Assembly (NCBI GenBank): GCA_041661605.1
Contig: JBAZUE010000001.1
Location: 798,928-862,927 of the forward strand
DNA length: 64,000 bases
Direction of reading: 5' to 3'
DNA from: Candidatus Omnitrophota bacterium
GTDB lineage: Bacteria; Omnitrophota; Gorgyraeia; Gygaellales; Profunditerraquicolaceae
Part shown: positions 22,501 through 34,170 of the stretch, one piece after another
Layout of the letters: every line of letters begins with the position of its first letter
Position numbering within the stretch: position 1 is the stretch's first letter
The notes under the pieces: generated by a model
Databases searched by the model: none
What the model was told of the DNA's origin: nothing
What the model saw: only the letters and a program-made list of their open reading frames with translations
Position numbers and translations under genes: made by a program

Positions 22501-24088
22501 TGGAATCTATAGGAGGATTAGTTACCTGAGCGAAAAGTTGTTTAAAATAACTATAAAGCATCTGCGGCTTCTTAGACAAAAAAGGATGCGGTATATCACA
22601 GCCCATAGAGCCCACAGGCTCCTTGCCTTCTTCGGCCATGGGCTTTATAACCATTTTTAAATCTTCCCTTGAATAACCAAAACTCTTAAGCCGCGTTATT
22701 AAATCTTTAGACTGACTGCCGCCGGCGCCGCTTTCAGGCAGCTTATCCAAATCGAGCATATTTTCCGAGTTCCATTTTCCATACGCGGAGCGTCCGGATA
22801 CAGCTTCTTTAATCTCGGAATCCTTGATTATGCGGCCGGATTTAGTATCAATGAAAAACATCTTACCAGGCTCAAGCCTGCCGGAAACTTTGATATCCTC
22901 AGGGGCTATATCCAAAACCCCTACTTCCGATGCCATTACCACAAAATCTTTTTTTGTCACAATATAGCGGGCAGGACGTAAACCATTCCTGTCCAGGATC
23001 GCGCCGATGTTTTTGCCGTCTGTAAAAGCAACCGCCGCCGGGCCGTCCCAAGGCTCCATAAAACAGGCGTGATATTTATAAAAATCAGCCAGGTTACGGC
23101 TCATAAGCTTATCATGCTCCCAGGCAGCAGGAATCAGCATCATCATGGCGTGCTCAAGAGACCTGCCGGATAGAGCCAAAAGCTCAAACAAGTTATCCAG
23201 CGCTGCGGAGTCGCTCCCTCCTTCAACTATGATCGGCTTTAACTTTTCTATATCCTTGCCGAATAGCTCGCTTGCAAGCAAACGTTCCCTGGCCCTGACT
23301 CCATTGATGTTACCGCGCAAGGTATTAATTTCGCCGTTATGCGCCAGGAAACGGAAAGGCTGCGCCAGATTCCAGGTAGGAAAAGTATTGGTGGAATAAC
23401 GTGAATGCACCAGGCACAAAACGCTTTTTATATCTTCGTTTTTTAAATCAAGAAAGAAATTGTCAATCTGCCTGGGCATAAGCAAGCCCTTATAAGATAA
23501 AGTACGGCAGGAGATATTGGTTATATAAAATGAATTCTTCTGTTTTAAACCGGACTCAAGTATTATATTTTCAACCCGCCTCCTGATAACATAAAGCTTT
23601 CTTTCAAAGCTCATTTCATCATCAATATCTTTATTTCTCCCGATAAAAATATGTTCGAAAACAGGCTGGGTATTTTTAGCTCCTTCCCCGATATCTGAAT
23701 CATCTATCGGGACACTTCGCCAGCCTAAAAGTGCCTGGCCCTCCTCTTTGATTATCTTCTTAAATGCCTCCTTACAAAAACTACGCTCACCGGGATCCTG
23801 GGGTAAAAAGATTAACCCCACGCCATAAGCGCCCAAATCCGGTAAATTAATATTCATACCCTGGCCTGCCGCTTTTTTGAAGAAATCATGCGGGATCTGG
23901 ATCAATATCCCCGCCCCGTCTCCTGTCTTAGGGTCTGAGCCGACTGCCCCGCGGTGTGACAGGCGATGCAAAACCTCAATCCCCTGCTTTACTATAGCAT
24001 TTGATTTCTGGCCTTTTATGTTGCAGACAAATCCTACCCCGCAGGAATCGTGCTCAAATGCAGGCTCATATAAACCTTGGGCTTTCAT
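19571..24088 (-). CDS. gltB: glutamate synthase large subunit
   Basis: 1505 aa. Ntn amidotransferase start with CGVGF, an FMN/Fe-S domain (SNTGEGGEDP, ISPPPHHDIYSIEDL) and a C-terminal GXGXG beta-helix. Confidence 0.95.
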   Translation of the reverse strand: MKAQGLYEPAFEHDSCGVGFVCNIKGQKSNAIVKQGIEVLHRLSHRGAVGSDPKTGDGAGILIQIPHDFFKKAAGQGMNINLPDLGAYGVGLIFLPQDPGERSFCKEAFKKIIKEEGQALLGWRSVPIDDSDIGEGAKNTQPVFEHIFIGRNKDIDDEMSFERKLYVIRRRVENIILESGLKQKNSFYITNISCRTLSYKGLLMPRQIDNFFLDLKNEDIKSVLCLVHSRYSTNTFPTWNLAQPFRFLAHNGEINTLRGNINGVRARERLLASELFGKDIEKLKPIIVEGGSDSAALDNLFELLALSGRSLEHAMMMLIPAAWEHDKLMSRNLADFYKYHACFMEPWDGPAAVAFTDGKNIGAILDRNGLRPARYIVTKKDFVVMASEVGVLDIAPEDIKVSGRLEPGKMFFIDTKSGRIIKDSEIKEAVSGRSAYGKWNSENMLDLDKLPESGAGGSQSKDLITRLKSFGYSREDLKMVIKPMAEEGKEPVGSMGCDIPHPFLSKKPQMLYSYFKQLFAQVTNPPIDSIREKLVMSLESFIGPERNILEETPGHSHKLMVKNPILANTEFEKIRNISVNNFKAKTVSILFKAAEGKKGFISSLERTCLETERAIEQGYSFIIISDRGADKDNISLPALLATSAVHQHLLIKAMRSQTALIVESAEPKEVHHFALLFGYGADCVNPYLAYEAVEYLSREKEINTESKAALKNYNKALSDGILKIISKMGISTLRSYRGAQIFEALGLSAEFVKKYFTGTVSRIGGVGLEGIIDETIERHRDAYAERRAGEVNLSSGGIYQWKKDGEFHLWNPESIAALQDATTNADYKRYKEFAELINNQSGNPTTLRSLLKFRKASPVSIDEVEPAENILKRFVTGAMSFGSISAGAHETIAIAMNRIGGKSNTGEGGEDPSRFIPLPNGDSKRSAIKQVASGRFGVTINYLVNADEIQIKIAQGAKPGEGGQLPGHKVSAIIAKTRYTTPGVTLISPPPHHDIYSIEDLAQLIFDLKNTNPNARVSVKLVSEAGVGTVAAGVAKGHADMILISGGDGGTGASPRSSIRYAGLPWELGISETHQTLLLNNLRSRVRLQADGQMRTGRDVAIAALLGAEEYGFCSAVLIVIGCVMLRHCNLNNCSVGVATQDDILQKRFKGKAEHIVNYFHFIVDELREIMASLGLRTINEMIGRTDLLELNQEIVPAKAKGIDYSRILYKPDLPENIERYCKVKRDSGLDSVLDRKLIKMWENCIKKNEPVRFSTGINNTDRATGAMLSGEVCKKYGDGALLEDTILCKFKGIAGQSFGAFLEKGITFELEGMANDYVGKGISGGRLIVYPDSSASYKPDENIIIGNTSFYGAISGEAYINGLAGERFCVRSSGLYAVVEGVGDHGCEYMTGGRVIVLGRTGNNFAAGMSGGIAYVYDEDATFKERCNLDMVELEKVKDSDKDTICNLLSNHFKYTKSGKARKILDNIQDQLKKFVKVMPLEYKRILEGAKVEKKLDVAEELDG

Positions 24089-24333
24089 GTCTTAACCTCT
24101 CTTAAAGAAATCCCCAGCTTTTTGATTTTAGCGCGCAAGGTATTTCTGTTTATACCCAGCAACCTGGCAGCCTTTATCTGATTGCCAAAAGTTATAATTA
24201 AGGTATTCGTAATCAATGATTTATCCAATGCATCCAACATTATATGATAGATCTTTCCTTCTTTGCCCTTTAGAAAGATCCGGTCTAACTCCAAAAGCGC
24301 TTTTTCTATTTCTCTTGCCTCTTCATCCATCAT
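24085..24333 (-). CDS. Fis-family small DNA-binding protein
   Basis: 82 aa. IYHIMLDALDKSLITNTLIITFGNQIKAARLLGINRNTLRAKIKKLGI parallels the E. coli Fis C-terminal half (LYELVLAEVEQPLL...[25 protein letters not shown]). Its TGA overlaps the gltB ATG as ATGA. Confidence 0.75.
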   Translation of the reverse strand: MMDEEAREIEKALLELDRIFLKGKEGKIYHIMLDALDKSLITNTLIITFGNQIKAARLLGINRNTLRAKIKKLGISLREVKT

Positions 24334-24360
24334 CTTTTGTATAAATATTAAGCAGCTTTA

Positions 24361-24394
24361 TTTATAAAAGCGCGCCTCGACAAGAGGCGCGCTT
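24361..24394 (-). terminator. intrinsic terminator after glnN
   Basis: 11-bp GC-rich stem aagcgcgcctc / gaggcgcgctt with a 5-nt loop, followed on the minus strand by TTTTAT. Confidence 0.75.
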
Positions 24395-24402
24395 ATTCTT
24401 TA

Positions 24403-26598
24403 TTAACTTATAAACAACATCTCCCTGTACTTGGGCAGGTCCCAGGAGTCATCAGGGACTACACACTCAAGCTGGTCAACATGCCTGCGGATATGTTCCA
24501 TTAAGGGCTTAAGCTGGCTGAAGTAAAGCTTGGCTTTTTCTTCATTACCCAGATTGGCGGACTTATCAAGCAGCTTGACTAATTCAGCGGTATTCCTGCG
24601 CACATAGTAGATCTTAGCGACTATCTCGGCTAAATGCTCTTTCTTATCCTTTAGCGCGGCAAGGTCAACATGCAGGCCGGCATCCTTCTTAAGCTTCATC
24701 AATGAGCCGAGGTTAGATGCTAAGAGCTGCTCATATTTATAGCCTGCAGGGACTATTGAGGCATTCACCATTTCATTTAAGGTATTGGCCTCAATCTCTA
24801 AGGTCAGGTTATACATGTGTATCCAGATGTGGTGGCGGGCGATGAGCTCTTCTTTGGAGAAGACCTTGTATTTCTCAAAAAGGGCGATGTTCTCCTTCTT
24901 CTTTAAGGCATCTAAAGATTCATAGGTAGAGGCGACGTTAGGCAGAGAGCGCTTTTTGGCTTCTTTGATCCAGGCTTCTGAATAATTGTTGCCTTCAAAA
25001 CGGATATTTTTGGTTTCCTTGACGATCTTGGAGATCACCTGCAGAACGCTGGCGTTAAACTCCTTGCCGGTGGAGGAGACACGCTTAATTTCGGCCGCTA
25101 CATAGTCTAAGCTTTCGGCAATGATAGTGTTGACTACCGCAATCGGGGTTGAGATATTCTGTGAAGAGCCGACAGCGCGGAATTCGAACTTTTCTCCGGT
25201 AAAGGCAAAAGGCGAGGTGCGGTTACGGTCAGTTGAGTCTTTGTTGAATTTGGGCAGGCGGCCTATGCCTAAATCAATGATATCGCTTTTGGAGACCTTG
25301 GACTTTACCCCTTTTTCAATCATATCCAGGATATTGGTTAATTGCGCGCCTAAGAAGACGCTGATAATCGCAGGAGGAGCTTCATTGGCTCCCAGACGGT
25401 GCTCATTGCCGGCTAAAGCTACGGAGGCCCGCAGGAGATCAGCGTGCAGATAAACCGCGCGTAACACAGCAGCTAAGACTGCCAAAAACTGCAGGTTGTC
25501 TTCCGGGGTCTGGCCCGGATTAAGCAGGTTGTTGCCTTTGTTATCGGCTAATGACCAATTTAAGTGTTTGCCGCTTCCGTTAATGCCGGCAAAAGGTTTT
25601 TCATGCAGGAGACAGACCAGGTTATGACGCAAGGCTGTCTTCTTCATCAACTCCATGAGCAGCTGGTTGTGGTCTGCGGCGATATTTGATTCTTCAAAGA
25701 TCGGAGCGAATTCATACTGGTGGGGAGCGACCTCATTGTGGCGGGTCATTACCGGTATGCCCAGCTTATAGGCTTCCTGGGCCACTTCAAACATGAAGTT
25801 TACCACCCTCTCCTTGATCGTGCCGAAGTACTGGTCTTCCAGCTGCTGGCCCTTGGGGCTGGCTGCGCCTACCAGGGTGCGGCCGGTCATGATCAGATCT
25901 TGTCTTAGATTATAATAGTTCTTGTCGATTAAAAAATACTCCTGCTCCGGGCCGCAGGTTGAGAATACTTTTTTGACCTCTTTGTGGCCGAAGAGTTTAA
26001 GCAGGGCTACCGCGGAATTGTTTAAGGCTTCATCCGAACGCAGGAGCGGGAGTTTCTTGTCAAGGGCCTCTCCGTGGTAAGAGATAAATATCGTAGGGAT
26101 GCATAATGTCTTGCCGAGAGAACTTTCGATGATGAATGCCGGGCTGGAAGGGTCCCAGGCAGTATATCCCCTGGCTTCAAATGTGGCGCGTATTCCTCCC
26201 GAGGGGAAGCTTGAGGCATCAGGCTCACCCTGGATGAGTTTGTTGCCGGAGAACTTCTCGATTACCTTGCCGGGAGAGGTTATGGAGATGAAGCTATCGT
26301 GTTTTTCGGCGGTTAACCCGGTCATCGGCTGGAACCAGTGGGTGTAGTAGGTGGCACCCTTGGCGATAGCCCAGTCCTTCATTGCCCCGGCGATCTCATT
26401 TGCCTGGGTGAGGGTTATGGTCTTGCCTTCAGAGATCCAGGCCTTGAATGCCTCAAAGGTCTCCTGGGAGATATGCTTCTGCATGGCCTCCATGCTGAAG
26501 GTGTTCTCACCGAAATAGGTGGATACCTTCCTGGGAGAATCCAGCTTATCTAAATCTATGCTCTTGATCTTAAAGAGAACCTTCTGCCTGATGCTCAT
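24403..26598 (-). CDS. glnN: glutamine synthetase type III
   Basis: 731 aa, which is the GSIII length class. The N-terminal YFGENTFS region and central blocks HNEVAPHQYE and NGSGKHLNWS fit the GS catalytic core. Confidence 0.9.
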   Translation of the reverse strand: MSIRQKVLFKIKSIDLDKLDSPRKVSTYFGENTFSMEAMQKHISQETFEAFKAWISEGKTITLTQANEIAGAMKDWAIAKGATYYTHWFQPMTGLTAEKHDSFISITSPGKVIEKFSGNKLIQGEPDASSFPSGGIRATFEARGYTAWDPSSPAFIIESSLGKTLCIPTIFISYHGEALDKKLPLLRSDEALNNSAVALLKLFGHKEVKKVFSTCGPEQEYFLIDKNYYNLRQDLIMTGRTLVGAASPKGQQLEDQYFGTIKERVVNFMFEVAQEAYKLGIPVMTRHNEVAPHQYEFAPIFEESNIAADHNQLLMELMKKTALRHNLVCLLHEKPFAGINGSGKHLNWSLADNKGNNLLNPGQTPEDNLQFLAVLAAVLRAVYLHADLLRASVALAGNEHRLGANEAPPAIISVFLGAQLTNILDMIEKGVKSKVSKSDIIDLGIGRLPKFNKDSTDRNRTSPFAFTGEKFEFRAVGSSQNISTPIAVVNTIIAESLDYVAAEIKRVSSTGKEFNASVLQVISKIVKETKNIRFEGNNYSEAWIKEAKKRSLPNVASTYESLDALKKKENIALFEKYKVFSKEELIARHHIWIHMYNLTLEIEANTLNEMVNASIVPAGYKYEQLLASNLGSLMKLKKDAGLHVDLAALKDKKEHLAEIVAKIYYVRRNTAELVKLLDKSANLGNEEKAKLYFSQLKPLMEHIRRHVDQLECVVPDDSWDLPKYREMLFIS

Positions 26599-26641
26599 GT
26601 TATTCCTCCTGACATATTAAAAGTTAGATTATAACTCAATT

Positions 26642-26695
26642 ATTCAAAAACAAACAGAGGCATTCTCATTAGTTATCGAGGAGAACGCCTCTGTT
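26642..26695 (-). terminator. intrinsic-terminator hairpin in the glnK1-glnN intergenic leader
   Basis: 15-bp stem with one mismatch (26653-26667 / 26681-26695), followed on the minus strand by TTTGTTTTT. It is ~100 nt after the glnK1 stop and ~45 nt before the glnN ATG. Confidence 0.65.
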
Positions 26696-26752
26696 CTCTT
26701 ACTTACATTGCTTAAAATTAAGCCATAAGATGCCTATAAATTAACTCACTAA

Positions 26753-26786
26753 TAATACAAGTAAGAAATAACCGGGTTTGGTAACC
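26753..26786 (-). promoter_or_regulatory. conserved 34-nt bipartite box, copy 1 (upstream of glnN)
   Basis: Plus strand TAATACAAGTAAG-N13-TGGTAACC. Minus strand GGTTACCA-N13-CTTACTTGTATTA. It lies 155 nt from the glnN ATG. Confidence 0.6.
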
Positions 26787-26790
26787 AATT

Positions 26791-27132
26791 TTAACCGATA
26801 GCTACCGGGCCGCGCTCCTCTGTCCTGATACGCACGCATTCATTTAAATCTAATACGAAAATCTTTCCGTCACCTGCCTCGCCGGTTTTAGCGCCTTTTA
26901 CAATAGCCTTAATCGCAGGCTCAACAAAATTCTCATTTACTGCAATTTCAAGACGGATCTTCCGCAGTAAATTCCCTGTTTCTTTGTGCCCGCGGTAAAC
27001 TTCTGTAACTCCCATCTGGCGGCCGTGGCCGAGGACCTCGCTTACGGTAATCAGGTTGATTTCTGATTTATAGAGCTCTTCTTTTACCTCTTCCAATTTG
27101 TAAGGCTGAATTATCGCGATAATTAATTTCAT
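26791..27132 (-). CDS. glnK: P-II nitrogen regulatory protein
   Basis: 113 aa from MKLIIAIIQPYKLEEV. I rejected the track ORF's 28-aa N-terminal extension because it overlaps amt. T-loop is GRQMGVTEVYRGHKE and the C-terminal block is GDGKIFV. Confidence 0.9.
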   Translation of the reverse strand: MKLIIAIIQPYKLEEVKEELYKSEINLITVSEVLGHGRQMGVTEVYRGHKETGNLLRKIRLEIAVNENFVEPAIKAIVKGAKTGEAGDGKIFVLDLNECVRIRTEERGPVAIG

Positions 27133-27145
27133 TTTTCCCTCTCTT

Positions 27146-28372
27146 TCATTCCAAAACTGTATACGCCCGTTCATGATGCTGGGTAAGGTCAAGCCCCATG
27201 CTTTCGTCTTTTTCACTTACACGCATCCTGAAAAACACATCAACAAGTTTATATATGATAAACGTAACTACAAATGTGTAAATTACCACAACTATGACCG
27301 CAAATGACTGAATGAAGAACTGTTTATAGTTGCCGTAAAATAAACCGTTAGCCCCTGAGTTATTGATTGCTTTTGAAGCGAATAACCCAGTCAACAATGT
27401 TCCCAATATTCCACCTACCCCATGCACGCCAAATGCGTCTAAAGAATCATCATATTTAAACTTAGGTTTAGTAATGCTGACAGCTATAAAACAAAGCACG
27501 CTTGCTGATACACCTATAATAATTGCCGACATAACGCTTACAAACCCCGAAGCAGGAGTAACAGTGGCAAGCCCGGCGATAGAACCGGTTACCATGCCAA
27601 AAACCGTAGGCTTACCGTTACGTATCCATTCTAAGAGCGCCCAGCTTAAACCCGCCGCAGCCGCAGCCGCGTTAGTCGCCACAAAAGCGTTAACAGCCAG
27701 GCCGTTTGCCGCCAAAGCGCTGCCGGCATTAAATCCAAACCAGCCAAACCAAAGTAAAGCGGTTCCCAAAACCACAAAAGGCAGATTATGCGGAGATGGG
27801 GTATGCTCCAGGTTCTTTCTCTTCCCCATAAAAATCGTAGTAACTAAAGCGGCGATACCCGCGCTGGTATGCACAACTATGCCTCCTGCGAAATCAAGGA
27901 CGCCTAAATTTTTAAGCCACCCTCCTTGTCCCCAAACCCAGTGGCAAATAGGATCATATACAAAAGTTGCCCAGAGCAGGATAAAAGCCAAAAACGCCGA
28001 GAACCTCATCCTTTCGGCAAAGGCGCCGATAATCAAAGCCGGGGTAATAACGGCAAACATCATCTGGAAAATCATAAAAGCCTGATGAGGTATAGTTGCA
28101 GAATACGCGGCATAAGGTTCTAATCCTACTCCGGCCAAACCCGCCCATTTAAAACCTCCCCAAAATATATTTCCCGGAGCAAAAGAAAGGCTATAACCAA
28201 AAAACATCCAATGCAAAGATAATAAACATAACGCGATAAAACATTGCATCAAAACACTCAAGACATTTTTGCGCCTGACCATGCCGCCGTAGAAAAAAGC
28301 AAGTCCGGGAGTCATTAGCATAACTAAAGCTGTAGAAAATAAAATGAAGACCGTATCTGCCCCATTAATCAT
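27146..28372 (-). CDS. amt: ammonium transporter (Amt family)
   Basis: 408 aa with 11 TM helices. Conserved DFAGGIVVH, the GWFGFNAGS signature and LDAFGVHGVGG (twin-His). Confidence 0.93.
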   Translation of the reverse strand: MINGADTVFILFSTALVMLMTPGLAFFYGGMVRRKNVLSVLMQCFIALCLLSLHWMFFGYSLSFAPGNIFWGGFKWAGLAGVGLEPYAAYSATIPHQAFMIFQMMFAVITPALIIGAFAERMRFSAFLAFILLWATFVYDPICHWVWGQGGWLKNLGVLDFAGGIVVHTSAGIAALVTTIFMGKRKNLEHTPSPHNLPFVVLGTALLWFGWFGFNAGSALAANGLAVNAFVATNAAAAAAGLSWALLEWIRNGKPTVFGMVTGSIAGLATVTPASGFVSVMSAIIIGVSASVLCFIAVSITKPKFKYDDSLDAFGVHGVGGILGTLLTGLFASKAINNSGANGLFYGNYKQFFIQSFAVIVVVIYTFVVTFIIYKLVDVFFRMRVSEKDESMGLDLTQHHERAYTVLE

Positions 28373-28388
28373 AAATCCTCCTGAATTT

Positions 28389-28420
28389 ATTTACACAACT
28401 GGTTAACCAATTGTGTAAAT
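28389..28420. promoter_or_regulatory. 32-bp near-perfect palindrome immediately upstream of the amt (27146-28372) RBS
   Basis: atttacacaaCtggttaaccaAttgtgtaaat, with 15 of 16 symmetric pairs. The right half, ttaaccaattgtgtaaa, recurs at 30205-30221 upstream of the second amt. Confidence 0.55.
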
Positions 28421-28424
28421 ACCG

Positions 28425-28474
28425 GATAAAAGAAAAGGCGCTCATAACAGCCTTTTAAGCTGCTATGAGCGCCT
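28425..28474 (-). terminator. intrinsic-terminator hairpin in the glnK2-amt1 intergenic leader
   Basis: Perfect 11-bp stem aggcgctcata / tatgagcgcct (28436-28446 / 28464-28474), followed on the minus strand by TTTTCTTTT. Confidence 0.65.
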
Positions 28475-28520
28475 ACAGTGCGCTATATAACTATAAACAC
28501 TACCTTGTGCCTAAGCTTAC

Positions 28521-28554
28521 TAATACAAGTAAGAGAGAAGCTAACCTGGTAACC
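28521..28554 (-). promoter_or_regulatory. conserved 34-nt bipartite box, copy 2 (upstream of amt-glnK)
   Basis: Plus strand TAATACAAGTAAG-N13-TGGTAACC, 149 nt from the amt ATG. Confidence 0.6.
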
Positions 28555-28564
28555 ATTAATTTAA

Positions 28565-28906
28565 TTACCCGATAGCTACCTGGCCGCGCTCTTCGGTCCT
28601 GATACGCACGCATTCTTCCAATTCAAGGACAAAAATCTTGCCATCTCCCGTCTCACCGGTTTTAGCGCCCTTGACAATCGCTTTGATAGCCGATTCAAGA
28701 TAATTGTCATTTACGGCAATCTCCAGGCGCATTTTACGCAAAAGATTACCTGTCTCCTTAGCCCCGCGGTAAACTTCTGTAACCCCCATCTGGCGGCCGT
28801 GGCCGAGGACCTCGCTTACGGTAATCAGGTTGATTTCTGATTTATAGAGCTCTTCTTTTACCTCTTCCAATTTGTAAGGCTGAATTATCGCAATGACTAA
28901 TTTCAT
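28565..28906 (-). CDS. glnK: P-II nitrogen regulatory protein
   Basis: 113 aa, a near-duplicate of the 26791-27132 product. Confidence 0.92.
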   Translation of the reverse strand: MKLVIAIIQPYKLEEVKEELYKSEINLITVSEVLGHGRQMGVTEVYRGAKETGNLLRKMRLEIAVNDNYLESAIKAIVKGAKTGETGDGKIFVLELEECVRIRTEERGQVAIG

Positions 28907-28938
28907 AAAACCCTCCCCTTAGTTTTGGATACCGGTTC

Positions 28939-30168
28939 TCATTCTAAAACAGTATACGCCCGTTCATGGTGCTGGGTAAGGTCAAGCCCCATAGCTTCAG
29001 ATTTCTCATCTACCCTTACGCCAATAAATAGATCAACTAACTTATAAATAATAAGCGTCACCACTGCCGTATAAACAATTGTTACCCCCACTGCTGCCAG
29101 TTGAACTAAGAATTGTTTAGGATTTCCGAAAAACAGGCCGTCAGCTCCCGCAGAGTTAACCAGCTTAGAAGCAAACAGTCCAGTAGCCAAAGCTCCCCAG
29201 ATCCCACCCACGCAATGCACTCCAAAAGCATCCAGGGAATCGTCATAACCAAATAACGGCTTAATCACAGTCACGGCAATAAAACACAATACGCTTACCA
29301 ATATGCCAATGATGATCGCCGGAATCACGCTGACAAAACCTGCCGCAGGAGTAATGGCGACTAAACCCGCCACAGCCCCGGAACATACGCCAAAGATCGT
29401 TGGCTTGCCGTTACGCAACCATTCAATCAAGGCCCAGCTCAAACCCGCCGCAGCCGCAGCTGTATTAGTTACCACAAAAGCATTCACAGCCAGGCCGTTT
29501 GCGGCCAAAGCGCTGCCGGCATTAAATCCAAACCAGCCAAACCATAATAACCCCGTGCCCAAAACCACAAAAGGCATATTATGCGGAGTAGGGACATTTT
29601 TATCAAGATTAGAGCGTTTACCCAAAACTATAGCCGTAACCAAAGCTGCTATCCCGGCGTTAATATGCACAACCGTGCCTCCGGCAAAATCAAGCGCGCC
29701 TATATTCCTTAACCAGCCGCCCATACCCCAAACCCAGTGGCATAACGGATCATATACAAATGTCGCCCAAAGTAAAGTAAAAACCAAAAACGCGGAGAAC
29801 TTCATTCTTTCGGCAAAAGCTCCAATGATCAAGGCAGGCGTGATAATTGCAAACATCATCTGGAAAACCATAAACGCCTGATGCGGGATTGTTCCGGCAT
29901 AGTCGGCGTATGGCTCTAAGCCTACGCCATTTAACCCCAACCATTGTAAACCGCCCCAGAATCCTTTAGATGGAGCAAATGACAGGCTATAGCCGATTAA
30001 CACCCACTGGATGCTTAAAACACATACAATAATGAAACATTGCATCAAAACACTTAAGACATTTTTCCGCCTGACCATGCCTCCGTAAAAGAAAGCCAAG
30101 GCCGGAGTCATCAGCAATACGAGTGCCGATGACATTAAAACCCACGCTGTATCTCCCGCATTAATCAT
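28939..30168 (-). CDS. amt: ammonium transporter (Amt family)
   Basis: 409 aa, a close paralogue of 27146-28372 with the same signature blocks. Confidence 0.93.
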   Translation of the reverse strand: MINAGDTAWVLMSSALVLLMTPALAFFYGGMVRRKNVLSVLMQCFIIVCVLSIQWVLIGYSLSFAPSKGFWGGLQWLGLNGVGLEPYADYAGTIPHQAFMVFQMMFAIITPALIIGAFAERMKFSAFLVFTLLWATFVYDPLCHWVWGMGGWLRNIGALDFAGGTVVHINAGIAALVTAIVLGKRSNLDKNVPTPHNMPFVVLGTGLLWFGWFGFNAGSALAANGLAVNAFVVTNTAAAAAGLSWALIEWLRNGKPTIFGVCSGAVAGLVAITPAAGFVSVIPAIIIGILVSVLCFIAVTVIKPLFGYDDSLDAFGVHCVGGIWGALATGLFASKLVNSAGADGLFFGNPKQFLVQLAAVGVTIVYTAVVTLIIYKLVDLFIGVRVDEKSEAMGLDLTQHHERAYTVLE

Positions 30169-30259
30169 TACCTTCCTCCTTTTTTTGTTAAAAGATACTC
30201 TTGATTAACCAATTGTGTAAAATCAAACTAAAAAAAGCCTGTCTTTCTCCTTCAAGCCC

Positions 30260-30439
30260 TTAATCTATGTTCAATTTTTCTTTAACCAACCGCGCGTAAA
30301 CCTTGTTTATCCGTCTTGTCTGCAGCCATCTCTCTATGGTAGTAATTTGAATATCTAGTTTCTTAGACAAATCATACAGGGTATAACCATTTTCCTCTTT
30401 TAACCGCAGTATTTTCCGGATTAATTCATTATCTATCAT
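30260..30439 (-). CDS. small helix-turn-helix protein (59 aa), not in the supplied ORF track
   Basis: My minus-strand translation is MIDNELIRKILRLKEENGYTLYDLSKKLDIQITTIERWLQTRRINKVYARLVKEKLNID*. GYTLYDLSKKLDIQITTIERWL is HTH-like. The ATG lies 6 nt after the glnK3 stop. No obvious SD. Confidence 0.5.
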   Translation of the reverse strand: MIDNELIRKILRLKEENGYTLYDLSKKLDIQITTIERWLQTRRINKVYARLVKEKLNID

Positions 30440-30445
30440 ATAATC

Positions 30446-30784
30446 TTATACAGCTATATCACCCTGTTCTCCTGTACGTATGCGTACAACGCCTTCTATA
30501 TCAGAGATAAAAATCTTACCGTCCCCTATTTCTCCTGTATAAGCAGCCTCTCTTATTGCCTTAACTGTTTTTTCAAGATCCTGGTCCTTCACTACAACTT
30601 CAATTTTTGTCTTCGGAAGCAATGCTAGCTTATATTCTTTTCCACGCCACTGCTGTTTCAAACCCTTCTGCTTACCATGCCCTTCAATTTCGGTAATCAT
30701 CATTCCAGGATAACCTACTTTTTCAAATGCGCTACATACCGCATCAAGCTTTGTCGGCCGGATTATCGCTTCTATCTTTTTCAT
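30446..30784 (-). CDS. glnK: P-II nitrogen regulatory protein (retains Tyr51)
   Basis: 112 aa. MKKIEAIIRPTKLDAV ... GHGKQKGLKQQWRGKEYKL ... GDGKIFI. Confidence 0.92.
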   Translation of the reverse strand: MKKIEAIIRPTKLDAVCSAFEKVGYPGMMITEIEGHGKQKGLKQQWRGKEYKLALLPKTKIEVVVKDQDLEKTVKAIREAAYTGEIGDGKIFISDIEGVVRIRTGEQGDIAV

Positions 30785-30807
30785 TTTAAATTCCTTTCTT
30801 TTTAATC

Positions 30808-30837
30808 GGCGCCTCCGGGTTGCCTGCCGGAGACGCC
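30808..30837 (-). other. GC-rich intercistronic hairpin between amt3 and glnK3
   Basis: ggcgcctccgg-gttgcctg-ccggagacgcc, 11 bp with one mismatch. No U-tract follows on the minus strand. Confidence 0.5.
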
Positions 30838-30847
30838 AGTTAATTAG

Positions 30848-32419
30848 TTATTTAGAAATAGGGGTCTCAGAATTCCTGTCAAGTTTTACCCCCGCATAGC
30901 CCACAACTCCCATCTCAGGAACATCCAGCCCGTATATTTCTGCTTCAGGATCTGGCCTACTGCCGCAAACTACATCAATTAATTTGAAAATTATAAACGA
31001 GATTATCCCTACATAAATAATATTGGAGAACACACCTATGCATTGAGCAAAGAATTGCGAGGCATCGCCGTAGAACAAACCTTTTACAGTGCCGGCAACA
31101 CCATTCCACCCATCACCATAGGAGCCATCCGCAAATAACCCTAAGGCTAAACATCCGAAAGCGCCATTAACTCCATGTACGGATATAGCGCCTACCGGAT
31201 CATCCAGTTTAAGTTTTCCTTCGACAAAATATACAGATTCAACTACTAATACTCCGGAGATCAAACCGATAATGCAGGCGCTGATAGAATTAACAAATGC
31301 ACAAGGCGCGGTAATCGCTACAAGGCCCGCTAGCATGCCATTACACATCATACTTGGATCGGGTTTCTTGGTACGCACCAACCACATCCATAAGGTAGCT
31401 GCCATTGCTCCCGTAGCAGAAGCCAGCATTGTATTAACCGCAACTATTCCGATACGCAAATCAGTACCGGCTAAGGTTGAACCGGCATTAAAACCAAACC
31501 ACCCGAAAGCCAGGATAAATGTACCAACAACTGCCATGGGAATATTATGCCCAGGTATAGGATTAGCGCTGCCGTCCTTATTAAATTTGCCTATACGTGG
31601 CCCTACAATCCAGGCACCGATCAAAGCGATCACGCCTCCCGTGAGATGGACTACAGAGGAACCGGCAAAATCCACATGACCATGCCCCAACTGAAAATTC
31701 TGCCCTAACATTGCCAACCATCCGCCGCCCCATACCCAGTTACCGAATATCGGATAAATTATCGTCCCTACAAAAACTCCGTAAATGCAGAAAGAAAGGA
31801 ATTTCCATCTTTCAGCTAACGCACCGGTAGGAATTGTCGCTGTCGTATCCATAAATACCATTTGAAATAGAAAAAGCACATACACAGCAACATCGTAGGA
31901 AGAACCTTGAAGAAAAAACCCATTTAACCCGAATAAACCAAAAGGCTTTCCGAATAAATTAATTGTAAATTCATGATTCAAACCCCCATAGCCCCCCAAA
32001 GTACCCAGGGCGCCTATGCCACCAAACATTAAAGCAAAACCACAGACATAGAAACCAAGCATACCTAAAGGATAAATCAAGAAATTCATACCCATAGTAT
32101 GGGCGACATTCTTGGCGCGGGTCAGGCCTGTTTCTACCATAGCAAATCCCGGTTGCATAAACATTACCAAAAATCCCGCAACAAGTGTCCAAACAAAGTT
32201 AATTGCCACCTTATTATGCCCAACAGTATTAGCTAATTCATCCAAAGTAGGCTTACCTGCTACAGCCGCAGACACATCACTGGCTGTTCCGGTAGCTGCT
32301 CCGCTGGCATCAGGGCCACCGGCAAAAAGGGATACTACCGATAAGGCAAAAAATACAAACATCATGCATAAAATTATCAAACTATTCTTTTTTAAAAACT
32401 GTCTCATCGTTATTTTCAT
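30848..32419 (-). CDS. amt: ammonium transporter (Amt family) with signal peptide and a long N-terminal extension
   Basis: 523 aa. Has DFAGSSVVH, GWFGFNAGS and ISVHGVNGAFG. It is divergent from the other two copies. Confidence 0.9.
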   Translation of the reverse strand: MKITMRQFLKKNSLIILCMMFVFFALSVVSLFAGGPDASGAATGTASDVSAAVAGKPTLDELANTVGHNKVAINFVWTLVAGFLVMFMQPGFAMVETGLTRAKNVAHTMGMNFLIYPLGMLGFYVCGFALMFGGIGALGTLGGYGGLNHEFTINLFGKPFGLFGLNGFFLQGSSYDVAVYVLFLFQMVFMDTTATIPTGALAERWKFLSFCIYGVFVGTIIYPIFGNWVWGGGWLAMLGQNFQLGHGHVDFAGSSVVHLTGGVIALIGAWIVGPRIGKFNKDGSANPIPGHNIPMAVVGTFILAFGWFGFNAGSTLAGTDLRIGIVAVNTMLASATGAMAATLWMWLVRTKKPDPSMMCNGMLAGLVAITAPCAFVNSISACIIGLISGVLVVESVYFVEGKLKLDDPVGAISVHGVNGAFGCLALGLFADGSYGDGWNGVAGTVKGLFYGDASQFFAQCIGVFSNIIYVGIISFIIFKLIDVVCGSRPDPEAEIYGLDVPEMGVVGYAGVKLDRNSETPISK

Positions 32420-32442
32420 TAAGAGCTCCTTTGATTACCCTG

Positions 32443-33246
32443 TCAAAAGTTAATATCCAGTTGGAAGGTAATCGTATCAGTAAGATTGCGATTATTATAA
32501 ATATCATAAGCAAGTATTGCCGAAATATCCTTGGTAAAACTCCAGGCAAAACCTGCATTCAAAGCGCCATAGGAAGACTGCGTACCCTGATAATCAACGC
32601 ACAGCCACAATTTATCGCTAATCTCTGTCATTGTGCGCTCCCAGGCTACCATTGGACCAGCATTATCCCGCAAACCTTGCTTATCTCTAAGCAACCTTCC
32701 GTTACCCACAAAATAACCGCCCGAAACTCTTCCCAGATTAACCTTACCTACATTAACTGTTTTGGCAATCCTGCCATACCAAACATTATTATTGGTTCTA
32801 TTGGCCCTTGTGCCCATATCGTATGAGCCAACTGCAATAGCGGGCATATCTTTAAAATAAGCGCCCTCAGGTACTCCTAACTTAAAATGAAAATACCAGG
32901 GAGTCGAATCATAAAATGATCCTAAGCCTTTTTTATAATCAAATCCTGTTTCAGCCATAATCTTGCCTAATGGATACCATAATTTACCAAGCAGATTCTC
33001 CTCCTGTTTATCAGATAAAAGACTAAAAGTCGGGCCCCAAACCTGCAAAACATAGTTATGCTGATCATAATTATCAGCATTGGTACCTTTGCTGGTTGTA
33101 GGAGCATAAATATCGTATCCTATATGGATCTTCTTATAGGGCTGGATATCGGTAGACGGAGCCCAAATAAGCGTTGAAGGGGTGGCATATACATTAGATA
33201 AAACAAAAGTAAAGAAAACCGCTAAAATCAATCTAATTCGCTTCAC
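32443..33246 (-). CDS. putative outer-membrane beta-barrel (porin-like) protein
   Basis: I chose the GTG start at 33246 (AAGGAGAG upstream), which gives the signal peptide (M)KRIRLILAVFFTFVLSNVYA. The sequence has alternating beta-strand character and ends in the C-terminal F of LDINF. Its stop is 23 nt upstream of the amt3 start. Confidence 0.45.
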   Translation of the reverse strand: MKRIRLILAVFFTFVLSNVYATPSTLIWAPSTDIQPYKKIHIGYDIYAPTTSKGTNADNYDQHNYVLQVWGPTFSLLSDKQEENLLGKLWYPLGKIMAETGFDYKKGLGSFYDSTPWYFHFKLGVPEGAYFKDMPAIAVGSYDMGTRANRTNNNVWYGRIAKTVNVGKVNLGRVSGGYFVGNGRLLRDKQGLRDNAGPMVAWERTMTEISDKLWLCVDYQGTQSSYGALNAGFAWSFTKDISAILAYDIYNNRNLTDTITFQLDINF

Positions 33247-33260
33247 TGTCTCTCTCCTTC

Positions 33261-33318
33261 CCAATAAAAAAGCGTCTTTTAGAATCCATCTTGGATTAAG
33301 AAAGACGCCTGCGTCTTT
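33261..33318 (-). promoter_or_regulatory. candidate terminator/antiterminator element in the OMP-amt3 leader
   Basis: On the minus strand AAAGACGC (33318-33311), GCGTCTTT (33308-33301) and AAAGACGC (33279-33272), followed by TTTTTT. The middle segment can pair with either flank. Confidence 0.45.
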
Positions 33319-33320
33319 TG

Positions 33321-33354
33321 AAAACAAAAAAAGCGTTCTATTCTTATAGAACGC
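33321..33354 (-). terminator. intrinsic-terminator hairpin downstream of the sigma gene, in the OMP-amt3 leader
   Basis: 9-bp stem gcgttctat / atagaacgc (33333-33341 / 33346-33354), followed on the minus strand by TTTTTTTGTTTT. Confidence 0.65.
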
Positions 33355-33390
33355 CTATGTTTAATTCTTACACTTCAATGTGCCCTACAT

Positions 33391-33424
33391 TAATACAAGT
33401 AAAGAATGCTTGAAACTGGTAACT
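33391..33424 (-). promoter_or_regulatory. conserved 34-nt bipartite box, copy 3 (upstream of OMP-amt-glnK)
   Basis: Plus strand TAATACAAGTAAA-N13-TGGTAACT. It overlaps the sigma-gene stop codon and lies 145 nt from the GTG at 33246. Confidence 0.55.
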
Positions 33425-33947
33425 AAATCTTATCCAGGTGCTTTTGAGACTTGGCCCTGATCTTGCGCATCATCTTTACTACGCTGACATGGGATACACT
33501 CATACGCCTGCCTATATCCCTGGTAGTCAACCCCTGGCTGAAATAAGTAAGCAGCCTTTTTTCTCTTGGATTAAAACCATTATCCCTGATGCTTTGAGCT
33601 AAAAGTTTATTATGCAAATCCTGCCGGCAATCCGGGCAAGCCCAATATTCACCAAGGACATCCTCCATAGTTGCCTCATCATCAGTATTCAAGGCAGCAT
33701 CCATACTGATAATATTTGAACGCTCATTAATTTTGCGTATATAGTTCTTCAGGTGGAAATAACATCCTTGCAAAATATAGCTGTCTGTTTTATCGCCAAG
33801 CTTACCCTCCAAGAAACTGCTCCAAAGATGGATTGTCGCCTCTTGATATAGATCATCATGATTAAACGACCGGTAATGCCCGTTTAGCCGGTAAGCAATC
33901 CTTTTTATGGTTGGCGATAACTTTTGGTACAACTCTTCAAAACACAT
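33423..33947 (-). CDS. sigma-70 family RNA polymerase sigma factor (small, ECF-like, regions 2 and 4 only)
   Basis: 174 aa. The region-2-like segment is DDLYQEATIHLW...YILQGCYFHLKNYIRK. The region-4 HTH is REKRLLTYFSQGLTTRDIGRRMSVSHVSVVKMMRKIRAK. Confidence 0.7.
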   Translation of the reverse strand: MCFEELYQKLSPTIKRIAYRLNGHYRSFNHDDLYQEATIHLWSSFLEGKLGDKTDSYILQGCYFHLKNYIRKINERSNIISMDAALNTDDEATMEDVLGEYWACPDCRQDLHNKLLAQSIRDNGFNPREKRLLTYFSQGLTTRDIGRRMSVSHVSVVKMMRKIRAKSQKHLDKI

Positions 33948-34009
33948 GTTCTAACCCTCATGTTACCCCACGCTAATAGGTATTGCGTGGGTATCCGCCA
34001 AGTGGGCGG

Positions 34010-34054
34010 AAAAAGAAAAACGTCCCTGCCCTGTTTTTCAAGGGCTAAGGACGT
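34010..34054 (-). terminator. terminator-like hairpin 2 in the sigma-gene leader
   Basis: acgtcc..gccct / agggc..ggacgt, followed on the minus strand by TTTTTCTTTTT. Confidence 0.5.
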
Positions 34055-34070
34055 CTTAGTCCGGTAAAAC

Positions 34071-34105
34071 AAAAAAAATCTTCTAACGAAAATTCCGCCA
34101 GAAGA
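34071..34105 (-). terminator. terminator-like hairpin 1 in the sigma-gene leader
   Basis: On the minus strand tcttct-N15-agaaga followed by eight T. The stem is weak and the U-tract strong. Confidence 0.4.
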
Positions 34106-34142
34106 CTTCAATGTCTTATGTTACAGCGCTGTATACATTTAA

Positions 34143-34170
34143 AATATACCATATCCCCTGAAATTGTCAA
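34143..34170 (-). promoter_or_regulatory. sigma70-like promoter of the sigma-factor gene
   Basis: On the minus strand TTGACA-N16-TATATT. The perfect 12-bp palindrome TACAGCGCTGTA (34122-34133) lies just downstream of the predicted start. Confidence 0.55.

Follow-up and report, generated by a model that had tools for sequence, protein, structure and literature searches.

In the Omnitrophota genome analysed here, the composite region in front of glnN and its neighbouring ammonium transporter genes is probably a two-layer nitrogen control circuit, in which a conserved bipartite box acts as a sigma-factor promoter and the leader behind it as an ANTAR-type attenuator. The box is most likely read by the small and hitherto uncharacterised sigma factor encoded next to it, a pairing suggested by adjacency and co-occurrence. 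All coordinates refer to the window, i.e. the whole stretch of 64,000 nucleotides that was analysed.

In the proposed first layer, acting on DNA, GTTACC would serve as -35 and ACTTGTA as -10 element, exactly 17 bp apart, and RNA polymerase carrying the 174-aa sigma factor (33423-33947) would start 6-8 nt past ACTTGTA. In the second, acting on RNA, the transcript would open with an attenuator of the ANTAR type, composed of short hairpins whose hexaloops have A in first and G in fourth place (A1/G4), and the loop plus 3' half of the second hairpin, P2 (GGCGTTC), would double as the 5' arm of an intrinsic terminator. In response to a signal of nitrogen status, a GAF-ANTAR protein would be activated and keep the hairpins in place, thereby blocking the terminator, and readthrough would then reach glnN, amt-glnK or the outer-membrane-protein-amt-glnK operon. 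The sigma gene itself would be placed in a cascade, behind a sigma-70 promoter and two attenuators. As its leader carries the same attenuators, a feed-forward cascade is suggested; the antiterminator would gate both sigma synthesis and each sigma-dependent transcript, and the proposed arrangement would therefore be a coherent feed-forward AND gate.

The bipartite box and its downstream genes

The boxes and genes of the region are as follows.

24085-24333: Fis/NtrC-type HTH protein
24403-26598, minus strand: glnN, glutamine synthetase type III
26753-26786, minus strand: box copy 1 (pattern match, position-frequency table), with -35-like GTTACCA at 26785-26779 and -10-like ACTTGTA at 26762-26756
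26791-27132, minus strand: glnK3
27146-28372, minus strand: amt3
28521-28554, minus strand: box copy 2 (pattern match), upstream of amt3-glnK3
28565-33246, minus strand: whole block of genes downstream of box copy 3
28565-28906, minus strand: glnK2, downstream of box copy 3
28939-30168, minus strand: amt2, downstream of box copy 3
30260-30439, minus strand: 59-aa HTH gene, downstream of box copy 3
30446-30784, minus strand: glnK1, downstream of box copy 3
30848-32419, minus strand: amt1, downstream of box copy 3
32443-33246, minus strand: outer-membrane protein, downstream of box copy 3
33391-33424, minus strand: box copy 3 (pattern match), overlapping the TAG stop codon of the sigma gene
33423-33947, minus strand: sigma-70-family factor of 174 aa, limited to regions sigma2 and sigma4, which is proposed to read the box

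The three box copies noticed in the preliminary description are real. The pattern TAATACAAGTAAR-N13-TGGTAACY has exactly three matches in the window (26753-26786, 28521-28554 and 33391-33424), as against none expected by chance, since 100 dinucleotide-preserving shuffles yielded no match even when two mismatches were allowed. The box-to-gene distances given before agreed within 1 nt on re-measurement: for copy 1 the distance from the preceding stop codon (glnK3) to the box is 4 nt and that from the box to the next start codon (glnN, ATG) 154 nt; the corresponding figures for copy 2 are 10 nt (glnK2) and 148 nt (amt3, ATG), and copy 3 is separated by 144 nt from the outer-membrane-protein gene, which has its GTG start at 33246. 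The transcription start of copy 1 is predicted at about 26750-26748, 6-8 nt past its ACTTGTA.

A view on related loci shows that the core GTTACC-N17-ACTTGTA occurs about 290 times across about 200 of them. In 1.16 Mb of DNA, consisting of 80 sigma-anchored loci and the window, 135 of the 137 exact matches to GTTACC-N12..22-ACTTGTA exhibit a spacing of 17 nt and the other two one of 21 nt; all 137 lie on the strand of the sigma factor and the controlled genes, with no box match on the opposite strand. The consensus reads rGTTACCAr-N9-TTTTTT-ACTTGTA, with spacer and flanking positions carrying about 0-0.2 bits of information, and the invariance of the core is partly due to construction, because the sites were gathered at no more than one mismatch. 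The box thereby shows the two elements, fixed spacing and single orientation of a promoter for an alternative sigma-70-family factor. Taking the G of GTTACC as reference, purines are found at positions 35 and 37 in 93% and 91% of the sites, and the first leader hairpin never starts before position 35-37 (in 13 cases exactly at 37), a hairpin-free stretch which is consistent with transcription starting there.

The box nearly always precedes genes of ammonium assimilation, namely porin, amt, glnK, glnN, glnA, gltB and nifH (the latter in locus L008). A scan of metagenome contigs with the box as sole query returned 155 sites, 143 of them with assessable downstream genes, and at most 12 of these 143 genes were anything other than porin, amt, P-II, glnN, glnA, gltB, Fis-type HTH, GATase or permease genes. 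Box sites are also found in front of both small HTH genes in relatives. The gene upstream of the box varies, being the sigma gene, glnK, glnN, the 59-aa HTH gene or gltD, and the offset of the box from the upstream stop codon ranges from -1 to 147 nt.

None of the familiar nitrogen-control sites accounts for the box. Compared with the sigma-54 (-24/-12) signature GG-N10-GC, i.e. TGGCAC-N5-TTGC, the box lacks GG-N10-GC, its -10-like half, TTTTTTACTTGTA, contains no GC dinucleotide, and the spacing of the halves is unsuitable. The operators of NtcA, GlnR/TnrA, AmtR and NtrC are dyad-symmetric binding sites, and an operator of this kind was rejected as well, GTTACCA and ACTTGTA being neither inverted nor direct repeats of each other. 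The initial statement that no NtcA, GlnR/TnrA, AmtR, NtrC or sigma-54 consensus is matched therefore stands, as the box has neither a dyad nor GG-N10-GC. A sigma-70 promoter was also discarded, no workable -35/-10 pair being present and the step from TTACCA to a hexamer starting with TA requiring a 21-nt spacer; the box also fits none of the known consensus sequences of ECF or sigma-H promoters. Two structural features ascribed to the box earlier did not hold up. The GGTNACC palindrome is not conserved, since among 136 sites 70 have G and 54 have A as its first base, and it is missing from about half of the box sites; its co-occurrence with the 59-aa HTH gene gave an odds ratio of 3.6, obtained with a pattern too loose to be informative, as it matches 126 of 201 loci. 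The small hairpin thought to present UUGUAUUA was rejected, because a helix of at least 5 bp can form in 80% of the sites and in 72-76% of shuffled or swapped controls, so that the pairing is no better than in these controls.

Leader hairpins, terminators and candidate secondary promoters

The leaders contain the following elements, with the hairpins designated P1 and P2.

26628-26633, minus strand: TATAAT, candidate -10 of a secondary sigma-70-type glnN promoter past the terminator
26646-26693, minus strand: intrinsic terminator of the glnN leader, CAGAGGCGTTCTC...GAGAATGCCTCTG plus T-run
26681-26698, minus strand: glnN leader P2, GAGAAC-AGAGGC-GTTCTC, A1/G4 hexaloop
28428-28474, minus strand: intrinsic terminator of the amt3 leader
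28468-28484, minus strand: amt3 leader P2, AGCGC-ACTGTAG-GCGCT, 7-nt loop with A at 1 and G at 4
28498-28509, minus strand: amt3 leader P1, CAC-AAGGTA-GTG, A1/G4 hexaloop
33266-33356, minus strand: two tandem terminators of the outer-membrane-protein leader (33326-33356 and 33266-33309)
33317-33302, minus strand: antiterminator hairpin AAGAC-GCAGGC-GTCTT of the second of these terminators
33350-33383, minus strand: P1-P2 segment of the outer-membrane-protein operon leader
33361-33350, minus strand: P2 of this leader, AAC-ATAGGC-GTT
33383-33370, minus strand: P1 of this leader, GCAC-ATTGAA-GTGT
34010-34170, minus strand: the sigma gene's own control region
34055-34010, minus strand: sigma leader terminator 2
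34062-34049, minus strand: sigma leader hairpin GGAC-TAAGAC-GTCC, overlapping terminator 2
34109-34071, minus strand: sigma leader terminator 1
34117-34102, minus strand: sigma leader P2, AAGAC-ATTGAA-GTCTT, overlapping terminator 1
34133-34122, minus strand: sigma leader P1, TAC-AGCGCT-GTA
34170-34143, minus strand: sigma-70 promoter TTGACA-16-TATATT of the sigma gene

Behind each box copy there is indeed, as reported before, a terminator, formed by a hairpin with AGGCG(T/C)TC at the start of its 5' arm and by a T-run (26646-26693, 28428-28474 and 33326-33356), and the alternative local pairing GAGAAC-AGAGGC-GTTCTC reported with it is present at 26698-26681. The glnN terminator forms a 16-bp stem in the minimum-free-energy fold (z = -2.5), and P2 overlaps with its 5' arm by the loop and the 3' half; the amt3 P2 likewise overlaps the 5' arm of its terminator. 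In all three window copies GGCGTTC constitutes both the P2 loop and 3' stem and the 5' arm of the terminator, which renders the second hairpin and the intrinsic terminator mutually exclusive, as in ANTAR targets. Two tandem stem-loops are seen in copy 3 (33383-33350), copy 2 (28509-28468) and the sigma leader (34133-34102). The glnN leader of copy 1 has only P2 and no canonical P1, departing from the dual-hairpin rule because its upstream hairpin has a 4-nt loop.

These rules extend to the relatives. A terminator is present in 253 of 273 leaders, compared with 35% of control segments, and its 5' arm starts with GGCG, GACG, AGCG or GGTG in 230 of those 253. A hairpin with an A1/G4 hexaloop, the type of loop required in ANTAR targets, precedes P2 in 150 of 215 leaders versus 17% of controls. 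In P1 loops, G occupies position 4 in 184 of 185 cases, and a purine (A 128, G 55) occupies position 1 in 183 of them; the fourth stem pair is AT (80), GC (53) or GT (42). The first three pairs of P2 are formed in 94%, 87% and 74% of the cases, and loop position 1 is A in 163 of 226, while the G at position 4 is fixed by the anchor used for site collection. The resulting consensus is CAC-ANNGNN-GTG for P1 and (G)AAC-ANRGGC-GTT(C) for P2. Covariation across related leaders, proposed earlier as a check, gave a divided answer: 96% of the cells in 52 P1-P2 segments (A2) are paired, whereas compensatory change affects one pair only, and since the stems are nearly invariant this neither proves nor disproves them. 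The hairpins are supported instead by the register controls, the loop rules and the differing stems of paralogous leaders (CAC/GTG, TAC/GTA, GAC/GTC, GGAC/GTCC and GCGC/GCGC).

Rfam seems to lack a model for these leaders: the whole window gave no match to Rfam 15 at gathering thresholds, and a permissive scan (E up to 10) of 26500-34300 gave chance-level matches only (E at least 0.57). As judged from their sequences, the leaders follow rules that match the published definition of ANTAR targets, i.e. dual short stem-loops with A1/G4 hexaloops, the second of them exclusive with a terminator (Ramesh et al., 2012; PMC3369931). The same study predicted ANTAR regulons, associated the targets with nitrogen genes, and termed the GAF-ANTAR and GAF-GAF-ANTAR architectures uncharacterised. 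The leaders should hence no longer be regarded as an undescribed or riboswitch-like element, as in the preliminary description, which did not consider ANTAR proteins: apart from the single hairpin of copy 1, they fit the dual-hexaloop antiterminator of PMC3369931, and GAF-ANTAR genes lie beside the sigma gene in relatives.

Further promoter-like sequences are found behind the terminators. An extended -10-like TGnTAnnWT occurs in 28 of 55 orthologous glnN leaders, and glnN probably has a second, sigma-70-type promoter downstream of its terminator; past the amt3 terminator, a candidate of the same type is TTTACA-N18-TGTAAA around 28419-28390. With such secondary sigma-70-like promoters, the box would not be the sole route to expression.

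The sigma factor and the GAF-ANTAR proteins

The protein encoded next to box 3 belongs to the sigma-70 family and contains regions 2 and 4, as indicated by its scores against TIGR02937 (46.2 bits, curated cut-off 42.9), Pfam Sigma70_r2 (25.6, cut-off 24) and GerE-type region 4 (26.6, cut-off 23.5). The nearest solved structures in a profile search are FliA region 2 (E = 1e-4) and the sigma-H entry 3mzy (E = 1e-3), and the AlphaFold2 model, computed from a 39-sequence alignment, is poor (pLDDT 59.6, pTM 0.35). In 67 of the 80 sigma loci a box is located within 250 nt of the sigma stop codon, most commonly overlapping it, and conversely the sigma gene lies immediately upstream of the box in 38 of the 155 sites of the box-only metagenome scan. 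This association persists down to 42-47% sigma identity, the loci concerned being labelled delta-proteobacterial, Syntrophorhabdales and Elusimicrobia.

The control region of the sigma gene is conserved in relatives with its sigma-70-type promoter, hexaloop hairpins and two terminators, and the box occurs upstream of the gene in only one of 115 distinct upstream regions. Its neighbours there are GAF-ANTAR genes upstream and nitrogen genes downstream, an adjacent anti-sigma gene not being evident among these, and the sigma gene does not display the autoregulation and co-transcribed anti-sigma factor of a classical ECF system. GAF-ANTAR genes precede it on the same strand in 44 of the 80 related loci, their ANTAR domain being confirmed by Pfam PF03861 with E-values of 1e-17 to 1e-21; one GAF-ANTAR protein is encoded at L012 9019-9789. 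No ANTAR gene is found in the 64-kb window or in the flanks of the closest relatives (L001-L004). Literature searches returned no prior description of the sigma factor, the motif or the module, and no nitrogen-, GAF- or ammonium-related one was found in the ECF reclassification paper.

Alternative readings and known systems

The comparative evidence favours the first of the two readings offered in the preliminary description, a promoter followed by an attenuator leader. Its promoter and adjacent sigma factor at 33423-33947 are retained, the box being directional, promoter-like, nitrogen-specific and sigma-linked in about 200 loci, while its riboswitch-like leader is replaced by the ANTAR-type one. 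The tie between sigma factor and box is one of adjacency and co-occurrence, and both small HTH proteins are conserved in the same cluster, with boxes preceding their genes in relatives; the box might accordingly be an operator or activator site for the Fis/NtrC-type HTH protein (24085-24333), the 59-aa HTH protein (30260-30439) or an unlinked factor, used with the housekeeping or another holoenzyme, while the sigma factor serves other targets. This is unlikely, as the box halves are unrelated and without dyad or direct-repeat symmetry, and as the box is strictly directional and of rigid spacing, its proximal spacer being rich in T and the implied +1 being a purine. Moreover, no sigma-70-like -35/-10 pair lies at a workable distance, and the gene abutting the first box in 67 of 80 loci is that of the sigma factor rather than of an HTH protein. 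A correct promoter combined with a leader that is not ANTAR-controlled in this organism, but forms a riboswitch-like or protein-independent attenuator or binds another RNA-binding protein, may be called quite unlikely. It would agree with the lack of an ANTAR gene in the window and in the flanks of the closest relatives, with the single hexaloop hairpin of the glnN leader and with the weak covariation in the hairpins, but it leaves aside that A1/G4 loops, short stems and terminator overlap are those of the published ANTAR target and that GAF-ANTAR genes accompany the sigma gene in 44 of 80 relatives. In addition, the region matches no Rfam family even at a permissive threshold, and a ligand pocket would need longer leaders with less variation between the hairpins.

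The second of the original readings placed the box, as an RNA element, in the 3' UTR of the preceding genes, which would end at an ordinary terminator, with downstream genes having promoters of their own. Boxes located 0-10 nt past the upstream stop codon in the window and the candidate sigma-70-type promoters past the terminators (26628-26633 and around 28419-28390) speak for it, and the part concerning a glnN promoter with TATAAT partly survives. As an explanation of the box it is very improbable: the upstream gene varies, with stop-codon offsets of -1 to 147 nt, while the downstream leader and nitrogen genes are constant, the box has no conserved pairing potential, and antiterminator hairpins at the terminators are sensible only with regulated readthrough into the nitrogen genes. 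Finally, amt2-glnK2 and amt3-glnK3 arose by an old tandem duplication (DNA identity 73% and 85%), and the three copies could be taken for functionless leftovers of this event or for chance. Duplication alone is insufficient, however, because boxes 1 and 2 are 100% identical although neither their 13-nt spacers nor the leaders behind them are related (about 48% identity) and copy 3 follows a different gene. With no chance match expected and about 290 sites conserved over about 200 loci of several phyla, this explanation is refuted by the comparative data and practically negligible.

The promoter-plus-attenuator reading has parallels in several known systems. Minimal sigma-70-family factors such as ECF group 4, sigma-H/ComX-like proteins and FliA also consist of sigma2 and sigma4 only (174 aa here), use promoters of two short conserved elements at fixed spacing, as proposed for the box, and have small dedicated regulons beside their own genes, as appears to be the case here. 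The present factor differs from them in lacking an autoregulatory promoter upstream and an evident anti-sigma gene nearby, and in a proposed regulon of central nitrogen assimilation rather than envelope or stress functions; GTTACC and ACTTGTA also differ from AAC and CGT, the usual motifs of ECF promoters. The glnA gene of E. coli has dual promoters, glnAp1 (sigma-70) and glnAp2 (sigma-54), and glnN seems to be similar in combining a regulated upstream promoter, the box, with a basal sigma-70-type promoter nearer to the gene, except that the upstream promoter is not of the sigma-54 type and an ANTAR-controlled terminator is proposed to lie between the two. The leaders share with the ANTAR targets of EutV (Enterococcus), NasR (Klebsiella nasF) and AmiR the short A1/G4 hexaloop stem-loops, in tandem in part of the leaders, the second hairpin exclusive with an intrinsic terminator, and the location upstream of P-II, ammonium transporter, glutamine synthetase and glutamate synthase genes. 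They are set apart by a likely GAF-ANTAR or GAF-GAF-ANTAR partner, a P2 loop constrained to NNRGGC, two tandem attenuators in several leaders, a single hairpin at the extreme 5' end of glnN leaders, and the position behind a proposed dedicated promoter that is neither sigma-70 nor sigma-54 dependent. Two-tier nitrogen control by a specialised sigma-dependent promoter and subsequent ANTAR antitermination, as proposed here, is known from Geobacter sulfurreducens, where sigma-54 with GnfL/GnfM is followed by the ANTAR response regulator GnfR (PMC2995071), and from Klebsiella nasR/nasF with a sigma-54/NtrC promoter and NasR antitermination (PMC12591593). Unlike in these cases, the promoter described here lacks GG-N10-GC, the associated sigma factor is a minimal sigma-70-family protein, and its gene is located behind ANTAR attenuators instead of being controlled by an enhancer-binding protein.

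Tentatively, and with rather less confidence than for the circuit itself, the GAF-ANTAR protein, minimal sigma factor, GTTACC-N17-ACTTGTA promoter and dual-hexaloop attenuators may be regarded as a self-contained module that replaces NtrBC/sigma-54-type control in Omnitrophota and has spread to the delta-proteobacterial, Syntrophorhabdales and Elusimicrobia loci, with the sigma factor controlled solely by RNA attenuation in its own leader. To our knowledge, nitrogen control beyond NtrC/sigma-54, NtcA, GlnR/TnrA and AmtR is poorly known, and we know of nothing on it for Omnitrophota, an abundant uncultured phylum. The box motif can be used at once for annotating nitrogen regulons in metagenome-assembled genomes. 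If the pairing is true, it would provide a sigma-promoter pair with a clean, nearly invariant motif and a small defined regulon of porin, amt, glnK, glutamine synthetase, GOGAT and sometimes nifH genes, which may also serve as an orthogonal part for synthetic circuits. If the module is true, it would contain the first sigma-70-family factor dedicated to central ammonium assimilation and the first sigma factor under ANTAR control, with feed-forward AND logic; it would exemplify the gating of a sigma factor by RNA antitermination and would give GAF-ANTAR proteins, a new ANTAR architecture, their first functional context.

Gene order and box copies in the window

The box/nitrogen gene cluster lies entirely on the minus strand and is organized as follows, in transcription order:

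33947-33423, minus strand: sigma-70-family protein of 174 aa (first in transcription order)
Minus strand: box 3, then outer-membrane protein, amt1, glnK1, 59-aa HTH protein, amt2 and glnK2
Minus strand: box 2, then amt3 and glnK3
Minus strand: box 1, then glnN (type III glutamine synthetase)
Minus strand: Fis-type HTH protein, gltB and gltD after glnN (end of transcription order)

The box, reading (G/A)GTTACCA-N13-(C/T)TTACTTGTATTA on the coding (minus) strand, yields exactly three matches of the 34-nt pattern in the window (26753-26786, 28521-28554 and 33391-33424, copies 1 to 3), where none is expected by chance. This bears out the three copies of the preliminary description, whose box-to-gene distances are reproduced to within 1 nt and whose terminator is present after every copy, with a 5' arm starting AGGCG(T/C)TC in all three. 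The amt-glnK units preceding boxes 1 and 2 are tandem duplicates with DNA identities of 73% and 85%; the two boxes are identical, identity has fallen to ~48% in their spacers and downstream leaders, and the context of copy 3 differs from that of both.

The first gene behind box 3 (32443-33246, minus strand) codes for a predicted outer-membrane protein of 267 aa, without any match in Pfam or NCBIfam, that may let ammonium through the outer membrane as a channel. Its gene is among the commonest box-regulated genes in relatives, some of which instead carry a porin-like protein of ~450 aa with a coiled-coil N-terminus. Relatives also contain a box and an ANTAR leader before a Fis-type HTH gene (~127 aa) followed by gltB (e.g., from 15613 in the related locus L017). 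The Fis-type HTH gene of the window (24085-24333) encodes merely 82 aa, and the 69-nt gap after glnN (24334-24402) harbors neither a box nor a hexaloop hairpin, only a plain terminator (24368-24394). Elsewhere in the window, a 380-aa protein with a Peptidase_S74 domain (14185-15327, minus strand) adjoins a RadC-like gene (15648-16328). In endosialidase and tail-fibre proteins, Peptidase_S74 acts as an intramolecular chaperone, and the 380-aa protein may be a phage-derived remnant.

The box in related loci and its putative sigma factor

A sigma-anchored set of 80 loci from species-representative genomes encoding a relative of the sigma protein, together with the window, comprises 1.16 Mb. On the sigma strand, 135 of the 137 exact matches to GTTACC-N12..22-ACTTGTA show a spacing of 17 nt (21 nt in the other two), and the opposite strand contains none. 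The consensus of 136 sites reads rGTTACCAr, nine free positions, a T-run, ACTTGTA and a weakly conserved tail in which positions 35 and 37 are purines; the sites were collected with at most one mismatch, which makes the invariance of the core partly a matter of construction, but not the zero information of spacer and flanks. Two features of the preliminary description did not hold up: 70 of the 136 sites have G and 54 have A as the first base of its proposed GGTNACC palindrome, and the small hairpin thought to present UUGUAUUA performs no better than controls.

An asymmetric, directional and rigidly spaced element with a free spacer is built like a bipartite promoter and unlike a dyad operator. 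Among ~280 leaders, the first RNA hairpin core never begins before position 35-37, counted from the G of GTTACC, and begins exactly at 37 in 13 of them, as would follow from a transcription start 6-8 nt downstream of ACTTGTA. Two known promoter types were rejected: for sigma-70, the box contains no pair of hexamers 16-18 nt apart, and for sigma-54, it lacks GG-N10-GC.

Of all regulators, the 174-aa protein alone adjoins the first box consistently. It passes the curated threshold of the sigma-70/ECF superfamily as well as the Pfam region-2 threshold; FliA and sigma-H are its closest relatives of solved structure, and its own structure model is poor. Homologues with 75-91% identity are found in many clusters source-labelled Candidatus Omnitrophica or Omnitrophota, which assigns the window to this uncultured phylum. 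In 67 of the 80 loci a box lies at most 250 nt past the sigma stop codon, most commonly overlapping it, and the association is still seen where sigma identity is as low as 42-47%, the loci then being labelled delta-proteobacterial, Syntrophorhabdales and Elusimicrobia. As judged from this adjacency and co-occurrence, the sigma factor would be the protein reading the box. A box precedes the sigma gene itself in only 1 of 115 upstream regions, arguing against a classical autoregulated ECF factor.

A sigma-independent scan of metagenome contigs, using just the box (GTTACCA-N13-TTTACTTGTA), recovered at least 155 sites in at least 120 loci. Among the matches listed, the sigma gene is directly upstream at 38 sites, and 143 sites have an assessable downstream ORF, at most 12 of which lie outside a list comprising porin-like outer-membrane protein, amt, P-II, glnN, glnA-type glutamine synthetase, gltB, Fis-type HTH before gltB, class-I amidotransferase and amino-acid permease. 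The scattering without any link to nitrogen genes that would have spoken against the preliminary description was therefore not seen in the metagenome loci scanned, and the box, judged by these loci, marks nitrogen assimilation. In some lineages the regulon exceeds ammonium uptake and the GS/GOGAT pathway, as indicated by nifH following the sigma gene and its box (L008, from 1041), an amino-acid permease carrying a P-II domain at its C-terminus (L016, 3577-5430) and a class-I glutamine amidotransferase; the loci with such additional genes also include L139, L167 and L174. The box of L148 is followed by a 623-aa ORF that resembles the L016 permease and has putative P-II similarity.

ANTAR-type leaders

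The leaders share a design in which P1, (a/g)CAC-ANNGNN-GTG(t/c), is followed by a variable linker and by P2, (G)AAC-ANRGGC-GTT(C), whose GGCGTTC (found in 87 of 134 leaders) doubles as the 5' arm of the intrinsic terminator. Terminators are present in 253 of 273 leaders versus 35% of controls, and A1/G4 hexaloop hairpins in 150 of 215 versus 17%. Position 4 of the P1 loop is G in 184 and position 1 a purine in 183 of 185 cases, and the fourth stem pair alternates between AT, GC and GT. Pairs 1-3 of P2 are paired in 94%, 87% and 74%, compared to merely 8-38% for pair 1 in shifted registers. The stems are nearly constant, which leaves formal covariation weak; paralogous leaders show differing stems with the same loops. 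ANTAR substrates have been defined as two short stem-loops with A1/G4 hexaloops, the second overlapping a terminator, located mainly upstream of genes for P-II, ammonium transporters, glutamine synthetase and glutamate synthase (Ramesh et al., PMC3369931). The shared design of the box leaders matches this definition and, on comparative grounds, the box leader is probably an ANTAR-type attenuator, for which Rfam contains no matching model.

The leader of glnN (copy 1) contains the following elements:

26785-26779, minus strand: -35-like element of the box
26762-26756, minus strand: -10-like element of the box
~26750-26748, minus strand: predicted transcription start
26698-26681, minus strand: P2, GAGAAC-AGAGGC-GTTCTC
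26693-26646, minus strand: terminator (minimum-free-energy fold with 16-bp stem, z = -2.5)
26628-26633, minus strand: TATAAT, 3' of the terminator

A canonical P1 is absent from this leader. The loop of its upstream hairpin, GCUUA-AUUU-UAAGC, measures 4 nt, and relatives suggest that this hairpin is a decayed GGCAC-NNNGNN-GTGCC. In many glnN orthologues the leader is still shorter, with P2 at the extreme 5' end, so the glnN leader may represent a single-hairpin variant. The glnN promoter suspected earlier at TATAAT gains weight from an extended -10-like motif at most 90 nt from the ATG in 28 of 55 orthologues, suggesting a basal second promoter behind the terminator.

The stretch from the amt3 leader terminator to the amt3 ribosome-binding site contains a near-perfect palindrome, TTTACACAATTGGTTAACCAGTTGTGTAAA (28390-28419, minus strand), half of which recurs upstream of amt2 (30200-30221, minus strand). 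The palindrome has the appearance of an operator placed within a sigma-70-like promoter, TTTACA-N18-TGTAAA. Of 112 amt upstream regions, 36 contain CAATTG-N5-9-CAATTG at most 110 nt from the start, versus 2 of 55 for glnN. The palindrome possibly serves the 59-aa HTH protein, whose gene directly precedes amt2.

The sigma gene and a possible feed-forward circuit

The upstream region of the sigma gene is conserved and contains:

34170-34143, minus strand: sigma-70 promoter TTGACA-16-TATATT
34133-34122, minus strand: P1, TAC-AGCGCT-GTA
Minus strand: P2, AAGAC-ATTGAA-GTCTT, overlapping terminator 1
Minus strand: hairpin GGAC-TAAGAC-GTCC, overlapping terminator 2

The -10-like element of the box, TTAC-TT-GTA (e.g., 33403-33395), and this P1, TTAC-AGCGYT-GTA, have the same flanks and differ by the inserted loop only, a likeness that may be accidental or may reflect a common origin. 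The sigma ribosome-binding site is immediately preceded by a GC-rich hairpin, CCCACGC-N11-GCGTGGGG (33966-33991). Similar CACCCCGCGC...GCGCGGGTG hairpins, sometimes in tandem, precede glnN or sigma ribosome-binding sites in relatives (L014, L024; glnN leaders of L006, L009, L032, L045), and another inserted unit, gccacaaggcgtggcgaatccgccac...gtggcgga, occurs within some leaders. None of these matches an Rfam family; they may represent small elements of a repeated or mobile kind, or hairpins controlling translation.

Comparing all ORFs with an ANTAR consensus, followed by a Pfam check, revealed a GAF-ANTAR (~250 aa) or GAF-GAF-ANTAR (~415 aa) protein encoded upstream of the sigma gene on the same strand in 44 of the 80 related loci, often directly adjacent. 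The comparison yielded no ANTAR gene within the 64-kb window or the flanks of its closest relatives, so that for the window's organism we infer this partner. The simplest model, which like the whole account derives from comparative sequence analysis, is a feed-forward circuit: the activated GAF-ANTAR protein would permit transcription of the sigma gene, the sigma factor would then initiate at the boxes, and every box transcript would again require the antiterminator. The nearest published analogues, GnfM/RpoN with GnfR in Geobacter (PMC2995071) and NtrC/RpoN with NasR in Klebsiella (PMC12591593), differ in using a sigma-54 first tier. No description of this sigma family, the box motif or the module was found in the literature. 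The leader should be regarded as a new member of the known ANTAR-type class, the box and its putative sigma factor as a hitherto undescribed case of a familiar type of element, and their combination as a new variation on the sigma-54/ANTAR cascades.
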